Positions 2,382 through 39,254 of a stretch of DNA of 59,172 nt are shown here, piece after piece. How positions within the stretch are numbered: position 1 is the first letter of the stretch; every line of letters begins with the position of its first letter. The position numbers were made by a program, and so were the translations under genes. Origin of the DNA: Candidatus Xenobia bacterium (GTDB lineage Bacteria > Vulcanimicrobiota > Xenobia > Xenobiales > QWHO01); assembly GCA_045863235.1 (NCBI GenBank), contig BTUM01000050.1, forward strand, positions 1 through 59,172, read 5' to 3'. The notes below the pieces were generated by a model. It ran no database searches. It was not told where the DNA came from and saw nothing but the letters and a program-made list of their open reading frames with translations.

Positions 2382-3788
2382 ATGCATGTGGGTCTGTCAT
2401 GGAGTCCGTTCGCCCTGCCTGTCGGCGCTGCTCGACAGGGCGGCCGGGCCACGCCTGACCCGACCAAACAGGTCACCCGGGAGACCCTGAAAAATCCCGA
2501 GGGCGCGCTGGCCAAGGTGAGCCGAGAGCAACGTCGGACGATCGTCAACCAGATGGTCCAGTCCGCCCCCCACCTGGCGACCAGCCCCCAGCAACTGCGC
2601 GAGCCGCTCGACTCGCTGGAGCGGGAAATCCGCCTGACCGGCAAGAGCCAGTGCGGCTTCTCCATGGGGGTCGGCTTCACCGCCACCCGGACCTATGTCG
2701 CCTCCCCGCCTCCCCAGCGCGCCACCCTGCAAGAGGCGGTCAGCTCCTACCGCCGCTACCTGGACATCATTACCCACGCCGAAGGGCGCCGCGACCCCAA
2801 AGTCAGCGAGGCCGACCAGGACTCGGCCTGCACCTGCTTTGCCATCGAGCACAACTACCTGCATCGCCAGAGCGAACGGGTGGCTCTTTTCGAACGCCTG
2901 GTAGGGTTGCTGCACAGCCCCTGGAACGCCCTGGGCGTCCTGCAAGACCTCGAAACCGTTCCGGAGGAACGACGCGAAGGTGTGATGCATGAGCTGACTT
3001 CACGGGTGCAGGCTCTGCGAGCCCGAACGCTCTCGCCCCAGAACCTGACCGACGCCCTGAATGAAGGCGCGGGTCTGCACAATACCAGTCGCAAGCTGGC
3101 CCTGGCCGGCAAGGTGCAACGTCCTGGCGAGAGCCTCAACGACCTCTTCCAGGAGATTCCCGAGGCCAAGCGGGCCCTCTTCGGAGAGCTGAAGTCCGAC
3201 CTCTGGATCGAAGCGATCGGTGTGGCAGCGAGCTTCCGCCAGCCCTCGGAGACTCTGTCCGAAGGCACCAGGCGTTTCGTGCCGGCCTTCGCCAGTCTGC
3301 AGACCCTGACCGGGCTCGACTACCGTTCGACACTCGAGTTGATGGCCCAGCTCCCCGAGTCCAACACCGAGCAGGTGGAACAGCTCGAGCTTTGCGGGCA
3401 GTATCTGCGCAGCCTCAAGGACCTGCCTCGCGAGGTGGCCAGCGGGGCCTTGAAGGCCGCCTTTGCCAGCGACAAGAAGCCGATCGATGCTTTGAAGCGC
3501 TCGATGCGAAGTTTTGAGCTGACCGGTGACGTGCACGGTCTGGAGAAAGCGGCCGCCACCATTCACTTCAAACTAGAGAATGGATCTCTGATCGGAACCG
3601 AGGAGGAATGGCAGCGCAAGCTCGAGCACCGCCTCGAGGAGTTGCGCCTCTTCGAGCCCGACGCCAGAAAGGCGTTCGCACGGGCCAAACGAGAGTTGTT
3701 CGAAAGTCAGGGAAGCCACCTGGGCTCAACCGATGCCTACTTCTTGATCGGCTCCAGCCGGATCCCGATCCGCCGCCCCCTGCCCTGA
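2382..3788 (+). CDS. Hypothetical helical protein with variant of the shared C-terminal motif (YFLIGSSRIPIRR)
   Basis: 468-aa ORF, no signal peptide, starts MHV. Confidence 0.8.
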   Translation: MHVGLSWSPFALPVGAARQGGRATPDPTKQVTRETLKNPEGALAKVSREQRRTIVNQMVQSAPHLATSPQQLREPLDSLEREIRLTGKSQCGFSMGVGFTATRTYVASPPPQRATLQEAVSSYRRYLDIITHAEGRRDPKVSEADQDSACTCFAIEHNYLHRQSERVALFERLVGLLHSPWNALGVLQDLETVPEERREGVMHELTSRVQALRARTLSPQNLTDALNEGAGLHNTSRKLALAGKVQRPGESLNDLFQEIPEAKRALFGELKSDLWIEAIGVAASFRQPSETLSEGTRRFVPAFASLQTLTGLDYRSTLELMAQLPESNTEQVEQLELCGQYLRSLKDLPREVASGALKAAFASDKKPIDALKRSMRSFELTGDVHGLEKAAATIHFKLENGSLIGTEEEWQRKLEHRLEELRLFEPDARKAFARAKRELFESQGSHLGSTDAYFLIGSSRIPIRRPLP

Positions 3789-3868
3789 GGTCTCATCCCG
3801 CCCCCGCTGCGGCGCCGTCCGGGGAGGTAGGTCGGGCGCGGCGCCGCAGCGGGCTTATCGGGGTTGCC

Positions 3869-4084
3869 TCAGGATGCTTCCAACCAGCGGCGATCTTCCT
3901 CGGTCAGGGCTTCCGGGCAACCGGCCGCCTCGGCGAAGCGCTTCCAGACCAGCGCCTCCAGCCTGCGGCTCGGCATCATAGCCGTTTGCCAGAGATCACT
4001 CAAACTGACCCCCTGATGCGAAGCCCGGGACGGGCAGCATTCGTCCTGGCTCGACAAGAGCTCGGGACGGGGTTGGATCTCCAT
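3869..4084 (-). CDS. Small hypothetical protein
   Basis: ORF MEIQPRPELL...RRWLEAS fills an intergenic gap; start uncertain (track start 4120). Confidence 0.45.
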   Translation of the reverse strand: MEIQPRPELLSSQDECCPSRASHQGVSLSDLWQTAMMPSRRLEALVWKRFAEAAGCPEALTEEDRRWLEAS

Positions 4085-4206
4085 TTTGAACTCAGCCTTC
4101 TTTCTCACCAGCTTCTCCAACAGTTAAGACGATCCAGCAGGCCGATTTGTTTCATCCCGGGAAAAATATTTTCCTGACGACTGCGAGAGCCGGAAAACCG
4201 GCGCTC

Positions 4207-37221: not shown

Positions 37222-37301
37222 AGTGCACTTTACAACGCGCTGAAACTGCGTTCCGGCGCGTTCGTCAGATTGTGCTGGAGGTTCCGGTTTGCGGCCAGAC
37301 T

Positions 37302-37349
37302 TCCAGGGGCTTTCAAGCCTCTTTCAGACCCCTGCGGCACACTCCCTCC
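37302..37349 (+). promoter_or_regulatory. Direct-repeat promoter, leaderless: TTTCAA-N5-TTTCAG-N10-CACACT-N6-ATG
   Basis: TTCAA at 37312, TTCAG at 37323, CACACT at 37338; no SD sequence. Confidence 0.65.
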
Positions 37350-39254
37350 ATGCAGGTTCGACAACTGGCCCGCGAGGGGCTGGTCCGTCAGGGTGGGCAG
37401 ACCTTCGAGAACGCTCGCAAGGTGGGCGAGAGCTATCTCGAGGCGATCTCCGAGCAAGCTGGCGACAGCGTGGAGGGCACGGTGGCCCGGGTGGCCAACC
37501 AGGCGGCGGCCCAGCGGCTCTACCCGGAGAGCGCCTACCAGGCCCAGAACCACGCTCTGCAAGCCCTGGCAGCCGGCATCGGCGGGCCCATCGGCCCGGC
37601 TCTGGCCTCGATCGGCTACCAGGCCATGCACAAGACCGTCTGGCACCAGGCTTCCAGCGCTTACCACGACGGGCGTTCTGTCAGCGCCGTCTTCCTGGAC
37701 GGGATCGCCACCCACAGCCAGGATCCGACCGAGCGCAAGCTGGCACGAGCCGCCCGCGAGAGCGCCGCCGACTATCTCTACAACGAGACCGCCTTCAACG
37801 TGCAGGCAGAAGCCCTGCGCCGCATCCGCGACGGGGTAGCCGGGCGGGACGTGGCCGCCAGCCTGGCCGAATTTGGCCGGGCCGCGCGCATGAAATCGCT
37901 CGACAACGAGAATGCCCGCAAGGTGGCCGGCCCAATCCTGGGAGCCATCGCGACCTGCTCAGGGCGCGAGGCGGCTATCGCCGAGGTCACCCGCCAGGCC
38001 AGCGCCGAGTACCTTCGCCAGGACGCAGCCAGCCTGGCCCAGGACGTGGGCTTCGCCGTCATCCTGGAAGGCTCGAAGGGAAGCATCGCCCAGGACCTGG
38101 CCGACCTGGGAACGCGCTCGCTCAACCACTGCAAATATGCTGAGGACCAGCGCAACCTGGGTCATAGTATTCTGCGCGGCCTGGCTCGCCACGCCGAAGC
38201 TCCGGCTGCCCGCCTGACCGCTGCCGTGGCCGACGAGGTCACCTGTCCGCGGCTCTACAACACCAGCGCCGCCGGCACCCACTATGACGCCTTCAGCCTG
38301 ATCGCCGAAGGGGGAACGCCCCCGAGCGACCACCTGGTCGCCCGCCTGGGCCTGGCCGTGCTCGGTCGCGGTGAAACCGTCTCCGACAGCCGCACGATGG
38401 GCCACGGAGTTCTCAATGCTCTGGTGCAGAACTCCTCTGATCGAGTCAAGAAAGGGGTGCTGGAGGGAGCCTTGCAGCAGTCGGCTCAGGCCTCCTCAGA
38501 CCAGGTGGCGGTGGGCATCCAACGCTTCGCTTTCAACTGGGTCCAGAGCGCCCCCTCGGTGCCCGAGCCCCCTCCTGGCAGCCAGGATAGTCTCGAACCT
38601 GCGGTGCTGCAGCAACGCATCGGGTTGCACGAGTCGATCAAAACCATGCTGCACGAGGAGATCTCCAGCCAGTCTGCCCAGATCGCCGGCAAGACGACCG
38701 AGATGCAGGCCCTGGCCGACCGCTTCAACCCGATGGTGGACACCGACCAGAAGCTCATCAAGCGAGTCAATCTGGCCCGTATGGGGCTGTTCGTGGGGGG
38801 CGGGGCCTTGCTCGCCGGCGTGATCCTCCAGCCCGGAATGGTCGGCGAGGTGGTCAAGACCGGCCTGGTTTTCGCAGGCATGGCGACCGCCGTGGGGAGC
38901 TTCGTGACGATGGGGAACGCCAATCAGAAGCGCCGGCTCTTGCTGGCCGAGTTCTGGCCACAACGACACGCCTACGACCGCCTCGACGGCGAGGTGCAGG
39001 CGCTGCAGGGGGCCGGCGCCGCCACCCGGTCCATGCTCGGGCCCATCGAGCAGGCCATCCAGGCCGATCAGAGTCGTCTGGAGGTGCTGGCCATCTCCCA
39101 GGCCGTCACGGCCCCCGACAAGACCGGAGCCATCAAGTTCGACCGCGAGATGGTAACCATCGGCGGAGTGCGCATCAACCGGGCCAAACCCAAGCTCGCC
39201 CCGGGGGAAGACCAGGACGCCCCGGCAGTTTCTAGCTCCGTCAGCTCCTCGTAG
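37350..39254 (+). CDS. Helical-repeat / coiled-coil / TM-hairpin orphan with shared C-terminal motif (MVTIGGVRINR)
   Basis: Starts MQV; about five ~80-aa repeats, coiled coil, TM pair, coiled coil. Confidence 0.8.
   Translation: MQVRQLAREGLVRQGGQTFENARKVGESYLEAISEQAGDSVEGTVARVANQAAAQRLYPESAYQAQNHALQALAAGIGGPIGPALASIGYQAMHKTVWHQASSAYHDGRSVSAVFLDGIATHSQDPTERKLARAARESAADYLYNETAFNVQAEALRRIRDGVAGRDVAASLAEFGRAARMKSLDNENARKVAGPILGAIATCSGREAAIAEVTRQASAEYLRQDAASLAQDVGFAVILEGSKGSIAQDLADLGTRSLNHCKYAEDQRNLGHSILRGLARHAEAPAARLTAAVADEVTCPRLYNTSAAGTHYDAFSLIAEGGTPPSDHLVARLGLAVLGRGETVSDSRTMGHGVLNALVQNSSDRVKKGVLEGALQQSAQASSDQVAVGIQRFAFNWVQSAPSVPEPPPGSQDSLEPAVLQQRIGLHESIKTMLHEEISSQSAQIAGKTTEMQALADRFNPMVDTDQKLIKRVNLARMGLFVGGGALLAGVILQPGMVGEVVKTGLVFAGMATAVGSFVTMGNANQKRRLLLAEFWPQRHAYDRLDGEVQALQGAGAATRSMLGPIEQAIQADQSRLEVLAISQAVTAPDKTGAIKFDREMVTIGGVRINRAKPKLAPGEDQDAPAVSSSVSSS

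Follow-up and report, generated by a model that had tools for sequence, protein, structure and literature searches.

The window analysed here is the complete 59,172-nucleotide contig BTUM01000050.1 of a Candidatus Xenobia bacterium (assembly GCA_045863235.1), in which five genes encode proteins ending in a common C-terminal tail of approximately 20 residues. The same tail is carried by about 180 proteins with unrelated bodies in this genome. These carriers share a promoter and type III-like N-termini, the genome contains the genes of a flagellum-type export apparatus, and the distribution of the tail across the phylum is nested within that of a pilin-like gene next to this apparatus. We read the tail as a docking label that would mark one subclass of the proteins leaving through a flagellum-derived type III exporter, which lacks flagellin and belongs to Xenobia and related classes; to this reading we give an even chance.

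The genome holding the window (G000; the window is its contig C50) comprises 8.36 Mb and is 97.6% complete. Its DNA is found mostly in sequencing runs from sludge and bioreactors, and its nearest named relatives are metagenome-assembled genomes (MAGs) of Vulcanimicrobiota (Eremiobacterota), with Ca. Bruticola and UBP9 being more distant. The 6,637 genes of G000 were called with a codon model made for this analysis and, hence, counts in this genome are approximate.

The tail motif

A hidden Markov model (HMM) built only from the tails of the five window genes (2382+, 5739−, 18955+, 26496−, and 37350+) yielded 97 matches at ≥10 bits among the gene calls of G000. Ninety-four of these lie ≤45 residues from the C-terminus, a zone that holds 12.7% of all residues. 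On iteration, the model converged at 183 matches, 178 of them C-terminal, whereas the reversed proteome gave none at ≥9 bits. The motif is real, lies far above chance, and extends well beyond the window. A preliminary description of this DNA had quoted the five C-termini, which lie where it placed them as judged by coordinates. It had also anticipated many matches at the C-termini of signal-less orphans in lineages sharing one export apparatus; this is what is observed, and the contrary outcome that it named—random internal matches at background rate—is not. The scores obtained with the window genes dropped from training (Table 1) are low for 37350+ and 2382+, making these two weak members of the set. 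For 37350+, orthologs that keep the tail argue for membership; 2382+ is best regarded as divergent, agreeing with the other members in the hydrophobic pattern and the promoter only.

The sequence logo of about 180 carriers features a Pro/Gly/Ser-rich linker, a hydrophobic residue at position −10 followed by any residue and Glu, a turn, and hydrophobic residues at −3 and −1 separated by one residue. Its second half consists of Gly-Gly, Val, Arg, a hydrophobic residue at +4, and a basic end. At positions −10, −3, −1, and +4, 98 to 100% of the carriers have a hydrophobic residue. The AlphaFold model of a 42-residue piece of the 5739− tail, based on an alignment of 116 sequences, shows a helix and a linker of low confidence, followed by three strands (residues 23–25, 29–32, and 35–38) at a predicted local distance difference test score of 84 to 86. 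As predicted, the tail would be a three-stranded β-meander of approximately 20 residues with one hydrophobic face, preceded by a flexible linker. Comparison with PDB sequences, NCBIfam, the Atlas, and a wide fold search gave no usable match, the piece being too small for informative fold searches; the earlier description had recognised no named domain in it, and none was matched in Pfam, NCBIfam, or PDB. Among representatives, the search returned eight matches: seven proteins with tails and one unrelated repeat protein. An Rfam scan of the window gave no match, and no account of the tail, the promoter, or the apparatus was found in a literature search that had most subscription papers beyond its reach.

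Six matches are internal, with 170 to 320 residues still to follow before the C-terminus, and one of these sits in a protein that also bears a terminal copy; a free carboxyl end is, hence, unnecessary. Extensions past the tail reach about 28 residues, and some carriers have two tails (C10:1461; P0003). An origin from FHA domains was considered, since the last FHA hairpin is similar, especially to the acidic form of the tail described below, and was rejected: only one of 18 FHA-like proteins scored (9.0 bits). The tail-like final hairpin of FHA proteins, including G000 C37:52195, is kept as a lead only.

Carrier proteins, promoter, and N-termini

With the tail masked, 188 carriers fall into 87 single-linkage families, 67 of which are singletons. 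The five window genes belong to five different families, and none of them has a Pfam family over the cut-off—which bears out the earlier statement that their bodies are unrelated. Some families mix members with and without the tail, which therefore behaves as a module. Pfam scanning of 124 of the approximately 183 carriers assigned no family to 92, PQQ propellers to 22, and InhA-like MAM domains, which are usually extracellular, to six. The remaining assignments are one each of PD40, HD, DUF885, and FHA, the last being a false member. No RTX family was found among these 124 carriers; genes of type I secretion system (T1SS) exporters were not searched. The tail is retained at all eight inspected loci of 37350+ homologs and at all seven of 18955+ homologs.

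The sequence TTTCAG lies upstream of 80 of 178 carriers, compared with 13.2 expected. It is part of a promoter that consists of a TTCAG direct repeat with a period of 11 to 12 bp and a TAnnCT box approximately 10 bp further on. The start codon often follows this box by 4 to 10 nt, suggesting that many mRNAs of the regulon are leaderless. In cross-validation, the promoter was recovered at 44 to 46 of 89 held-out carriers and at 28 to 30 of 1,500 other genes. Across G000, 392 sites score ≥15 bits compared with 14 to 18 for shuffled columns; a site is present at 123 of 183 carriers and at 241 of 6,454 other genes. Within the window, three carriers have a site of their own, 18955+ is read from the leader of an operon (its start lies 3 nt past the stop of 18104+), and 26496− has none. 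One pilin-like gene of the export cluster also carries the regulon promoter (23.6 bits). The direct-repeat geometry is, in our estimation, reminiscent of SARP or PhoB-type activators; BTAD/SARP-type matches number 25 in G000, none of them singled out as the activator.

The leaderless regulon genes number 247, comprising 117 with the tail and 130 without. A signal-like hydrophobic region is present in none of the 117 carriers compared with 147 of 666 controls; the lack of a Sec signal that was stated earlier thus stands, as judged by a hydrophobicity heuristic only. Position 3 is Ile or Val in 63% of the carriers, 46% of the tail-less regulon proteins, and 17% of the 666 controls. The N-termini of carriers and tail-less regulon proteins alike are of low charge and rich in Pro and Ser, and low-charge, unstructured Pro/Ser-rich N-termini are the typical look of type III substrates. 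Taken by these heuristic counts, the carriers combine the absence of a Sec signal with an unstructured, low-charge N-terminus, as is expected of type III substrates.

Many of the tail-less co-regulated proteins are enzyme-like by inspection and bear an N-terminal extension. Four of them in G000 (C13:65280, C14:62443, C7:89579, and C61:15154) look, in that order, like a caleosin, a P450, a glycosyltransferase, and a thioredoxin reductase, and most of the four begin with an extension of the type III-like kind. In addition, at least 12 paralogs of 660 to 780 residues (G000 C5:178264, C94:17332, C82:27413, and others), possibly subtilisins, lack the tail; they start with type III-like N-termini, and their MAM-like C-terminal region recurs in some carriers.

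The export apparatus

The export cluster of G000 resides on contig C27 (Table 1). By Pfam, it contains flgB, flgC, fliE, fliF, fliG, fliH, fliI, fliJ, fliK, fliM, fliN, fliO, fliP, fliQ, flhB, and flhA, with fliR assigned by position only; flgF/flgG lie on contig C74 (C74:407–3983). Flagellin or FlgL gave no match in G000 in a search whose control was positive in four of 14, and the MotB plug gave none either. With neither filament nor stator found, the locus is not a motile flagellum. Seven of the eight core sctJNQRSTUV homologs are clustered by Pfam (FliF, FliI, FliN, FliP, FliQ, FlhB, and FlhA), the eighth being fliR. No secretin lies within the C27 cluster; the three secretin matches of G000 are on contigs C26, C145, and C70. 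In the accessible text of Abby and Rocha 2012, flgB, flgC, and fliE are flagellum-specific, and the criteria for non-flagellar type III secretion systems (T3SSs) include at least seven of eight core genes and a secretin (PMC3459982). Because flgB, flgC, and fliE are kept and the secretin is absent, the locus is not a non-flagellar T3SS by these criteria.

Three tandem small genes of about 81 residues each are located downstream of flhA. In the Atlas, the named clusters closest to them are HrpA pilin (0.91 and 0.90; the family is on 23–24% of members) and HrpE-like (0.88), and these language-model features provide a lead toward Hrp-pilin-like subunits. The cluster also encodes a 473-residue Gly/Pro-rich protein with a pilin-like helix at its end, which may be a tip or a translocator. 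Pilin-like homologs further occur in Acidobacteriota and in one Kiritimatiellia MAG (L071–L075), where no export genes were recognised within 10 kb.

Flagellin is present in ten of 44 genomes of the class, and each of the five tested among these carries two or three full FlhA genes. In a tree of 25 rows, the FlhA linked to the pilin—that of G000 and the second FlhA of flagellin-bearing relatives included—forms one 100/100 clade, which sits among flagellar FlhA and apart from the FlhA of the true flagellum of Xenobia. Four SctV rows split from all FlhA at 100/100. This midpoint-drawn tree is small and long-branched, lacks Myxococcal and Chlamydial rows, and comes with no clade-rejection test; it therefore only suggests that the exporter arose independently of known non-flagellar T3SS. 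Only the cytoplasmic part of FlhA is found in a further set of proteins in G000, five clear and one weak (C80:28174, C3:27006, C1:377670, C106:14902, and C107:14606), with similar sets in relatives, and at C107:13658 an apparent FliG-like N-terminus is fused to this part. In genus g4, G007:C21:61652 and G017:C2:158556 encode a further full FlhA with 63–69% identity to that of the exporter—possibly a duplicate apparatus.

Other machines were searched as well. TssC of the type VI secretion system (T6SS) and VirB4 of the type IV secretion system (T4SS) were found in none of the five genus genomes. TraG, VirB8, VirB9, and VirB10 have no homolog in G000 (one query each; divergent Dot/Icm-type systems were not searched), and a phage-type sheath of extracellular contractile injection systems (eCISs) was not found there. 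With neither TssC nor sheath, the carriers were rejected as T6SS or eCIS cargo.

Distribution and the acidic variant

Among 121 genomes of the phylum, the tail is present in 14 and the pilin-like gene in 43; all 14 are within the 43, and none of the 78 genomes without the pilin-like gene has the tail. Three tail-bearing genomes lie outside the class, with C-terminal matches, most of them behind similar N-termini; exporter-type FlhA was found at 74–79% identity in both of those tested. No tail was detected with any of the three profiles in genera g2 and g4, where the search for homologs of two window carriers was also essentially negative.

In genus g5 the tail is acidic and has a Gly-Asp turn (44 and 16 matches), and its profile aligns with that of the basic form at 87% probability. 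The G013 ortholog of 5739− (36% identity) bears such an acidic tail at its end. The net charge of g5 tails is −3.9 versus +2.1 in g1, whereas the proteomes differ only slightly, with −2.15 versus −1.3 per 100 residues in 103 ortholog pairs. The basic end is thus not essential: of the consensus given in the preliminary description, the hydrophobic pattern and its position stand and the basic end does not. Since the tails of unrelated g5 genes have shifted together, a single shared reader fits. No conserved non-carrier neighbour of the carriers stood out as its partner. G000 has six matches to the YbjN fold, which is class I chaperone-like. Three G000 genes (C2:32180, C2:114149, and C18:51066) are paralogs of a conserved acidic YbjN-fold protein that is single-copy in most f2 genomes.

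Role of the tail

The preliminary description had proposed a basic C-terminal export signal akin to those read by T1SS, T4SS, or the type IX secretion system (T9SS). This is not upheld: no T4SS core was found, the g5 tail is acidic, and internal copies exist. The same observations make it likelier that the export signal is N-terminal, as does the fact that 130 of the 247 leaderless, type III-like regulon proteins are tail-less, with the tail as an extra label. What survives of the earlier proposal is a mark on substrates of one machine, for which the shared apparatus and promoter context speak. In the docking-label reading, carriers would be exported unfolded through the flagellum-derived apparatus via their N-terminal signal. 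The hydrophobic face of the tail would pack onto one putative partner in the same bacterium—a chaperone or a sorting adaptor—that would set the order, efficiency, or destination of export. More broadly, Xenobia and neighbouring Vulcanimicrobiota classes may possess an injectisome-like machine that evolved from a flagellum independently of known non-flagellar T3SS. It would combine a flagellar basal body and rod with a Hrp-pilin-like filament and serve several hundred largely leaderless effector genes, the β-meander label sorting about 180 of their products and co-evolving with one receptor. This wider scenario is put forward tentatively, its probability lying somewhat short of even.

Several observations weigh against the docking-label reading. 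The pilin-like protein gives nothing significant by Pfam, PDB profile, or Foldseek, so that its Hrp-like character comes from language-model features where profiles are silent, and its single-sequence model is one long helix rather than a hairpin. A full promoter site was found at only one of ten pilin-like genes checked and at none of the basal-body genes. The promoter also occurs without tails, its pattern being present in all 44 class genomes and exceeding the reversed control in most of them. The tail is missing from 29 of the 43 pilin-positive genomes, and the genomes are kin, so that the 14 co-occurrences are not independent cases. Genus g4 has the FlhA (85–87%) and the promoter, yet neither the tail nor a detectable pilin. 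The charge reversal of the g5 tails was not seen to be mirrored in 14 apparatus proteins or in the candidate chaperones with the YbjN fold. Finally, secretins of the type II secretion system (T2SS) and of type IV pili are also present in G000.

The tail could instead act after passage through the same exporter, anchoring carriers to a surface layer, a pilus tip, or a secreted platform, or sending them to a target-cell membrane or protein. This is unlikely, although the most probable of the rivals: carrier bodies are mostly of the binding type (propellers, MAM/CUB/F5-8 domains, and hydrophobic hairpins), whereas the tail-less co-regulated proteins are often enzyme-like, and, as internal copies exist, the tail needs no free C-terminus. 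The switch from basic to acidic in g5 argues against binding to an anionic lipid or wall polymer, and no platform gene was found adjoining the carriers across genera. Quite improbable is self-association in the manner of a foldon, by which the tail would oligomerise carriers without any role in sorting. A one-faced three-stranded sheet is too small to be stable alone and the carriers with two tails would fit, whereas copies of a module so strongly charged, basic in g1 and acidic in g5, would repel each other, and the tail sits on 87 unrelated body families, propellers included.

That many genomes with the type III apparatus have no tail, and that T2SS and pilus systems are present, would be accounted for if the tail were the export signal of another machine—related to T2SS or type IV pili, a T1SS, or one as yet without a name—and the type III link reflected shared ancestry. 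We judge this very improbable, as T2SS cargo requires a Sec or Tat signal, the T4SS and T6SS components and the sheath were not found in the searches described above, and carriers share the type of N-terminus and the promoter with tail-less proteins. A tag for degradation or regulation in the cytoplasm, recognised by a protease adaptor and serving to clear unsecreted substrates, would agree with the C-terminal position after a flexible linker, which is typical of degrons, and with a Lon-like protease gene (by inspection) near the export cluster at C27:47119. Internal copies, extensions of up to about 28 residues, and a three-strand pattern longer than typical degrons render this the most improbable of the readings weighed here.

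Comparison with known systems

The docking-label reading places the apparatus closest to non-flagellar T3SS including the Hrp pilus, with which it shares a FlhA/FlhB/FliPQR-type gate, a FliI-type ATPase, and the lack of detectable flagellin and MotB (PMC3459982, in the text accessible). A large co-regulated set with unstructured N-termini is a further likeness to Hrp systems, and the small putative pilin, which Atlas features place near HrpA/HrpE, may be another. The Xenobia locus differs in keeping flgB, flgC, fliE, fliG/M/N/O, and flgF/G, in having no secretin in the cluster, and in the position of its FlhA among flagellar FlhA. We know of no shared C-terminal β-meander on substrates of non-flagellar T3SS.

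In flagella, C-terminal signals are helical D0 regions, and the chaperones are FlgN, FliS, and FliT. A precedent for an added C-terminal signal on type III substrates is provided by the available portion of Bryant and Fraser 2024, which describes flagellar subunits with N-terminal export signals and a separate C-terminal targeting signal (PMC10936197). Those signals reside in rod, hook, and filament subunits, whereas the β-meander is on about 180 non-structural proteins. Lysobacter is said to have repurposed flagellar export, and Myxococcus reportedly has a needleless T3SS*—type III export genes in predators without flagella. Unlike these, the Xenobia apparatus is a separate conserved lineage (FlhA at 74–96% identity to G000), is found alongside a true flagellum in some genomes, and has a putative pilin-like subunit of its own.

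As in the basic tails of T4SS substrates and the C-terminal domains (CTDs) of T9SS cargo, a short conserved C-terminal module is placed on unrelated bodies after a linker. T9SS cargo needs a Sec signal, and its CTD is an Ig-like domain, whereas the module described here has about 20 residues, is no Ig-like domain, and is found on carriers without a Sec signal. Against a T4SS basic C-terminal signal speak the T4SS core, which was not found, and the charge, which is not conserved. Superficially, the core of the tail is also like the cargo-loading peptide of encapsulins, in which a flexible linker precedes a hydrophobic-x-hydrophobic-Gly-Ser/Gly-hydrophobic-basic core. Carriers of up to about 1,800 residues occur, and family 1 encapsulin, the only encapsulin family searched, is absent from G000, G004, G013, and G033 and present only in G034 (one of five); for its absence from G000, an encapsulin cargo peptide was rejected.

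If true, the docking-label reading would make the secreted proteins of this lineage, which is abundant and known from metagenomes, traceable by sequence: tail, N-terminus, and promoter together pick about 250 to 400 candidate substrates in each genome. A flagellum converted to protein delivery would then have a second natural example, with rod and C-ring genes still present, and this would bear on the origin of injectisomes. Annotation pipelines would take the locus for a flagellum and infer a motile cell. In its basic and acidic versions, the tail provides a natural pair for finding the receptor by swap. Marine relatives were called putatively motile and predatory from gene content by Paoli et al., with TXSScan run, in the portion of that paper at hand, and the exporter would provide the means for the life as predators or on particles that is proposed there (PMC9259500). 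In the accessible text of a Xenobia MAG paper, neither 'secretion' nor 'flagell' occurs (PMC11484240).

Features of the window

Table 1. Positions of tails, carriers, and promoters in the window, and of the export cluster of the same genome; bits of tails come from models trained without the window genes, bits of promoters are position weight matrix scores.
Feature	Position	Strand	Remarks
Promoter of 2382+, direct repeat	2340..2377	+	20.0 bits; TTCAG repeat and −10-like box; 6 nt before ATG at 2382; predicted leaderless
468-residue orphan 2382+	2382..3788	+	divergent tail; no Pfam family; two-member family
Tail of 2382+	3720..3773	+	0.8 bits; GS turn; divergent, hydrophobic pattern only
510-residue orphan 5739−	4207..5739	−	start 5739 set by promoter; "propeller" is an earlier label only
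Tail of 5739−	4216..4269	−	20.6 bits; modelled β-meander after helix and linker
Promoter of 5739−, direct repeat	5745..5782	−	28.5 bits
Promoter of 18104–18955 operon, direct repeat	18061..18098	+	27.1 bits
Operon leader 18104+, α/β-hydrolase-like	18104..18952	+	tail-less, co-regulated; Abhydrolase_6 E 0.04, below cut-off; promoter
318-residue orphan 18955+	18955..19911	+	hydrophobic hairpins and tail; five-member family; orthologs retain tail
Tail of 18955+	19846..19899	+	24.2 bits
Large orphan 26496−	23582..26496	−	37-member carrier family; split by probable assembly frameshift near 25469
Tail of 26496−	23588..23641	−	21.8 bits; PG turn
Promoter of 37350+, direct repeat	37308..37345	+	30.8 bits
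634-residue orphan 37350+	37350..39254	+	hydrophobic hairpin, tail, 23-residue extension; homologs in g1, g5, f5
Tail of 37350+	39132..39185	+	6.8 bits
Flagellum-type export cluster (L005, L006)	G000 C27:54348-79219		two fliQ, two fliN, second partial fliG, lytic transglycosylase, tandem pilin-like genes

One extra base near 25469 is present in the contigs of three of four runs, the fourth having no coverage there; the frameshift that splits 26496− is, hence, most likely an assembly error. This gene is flanked by an NlpC/P60 protein (21549–23480, − strand) and a GH18 chitinase-like protein (26611–28893, + strand), both with lipoprotein-like N-termini. A weaker direct-repeat site (15 bits) lies upstream of the gene at 21001–21306 on the − strand. 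The low-complexity repeated frame at the contig start (11–757) may have its coding strand opposite. A PilN-/PilO-like gene pair (6366–7541, + strand) follows a sigma-factor-like fragment, away from the main pilus cluster.

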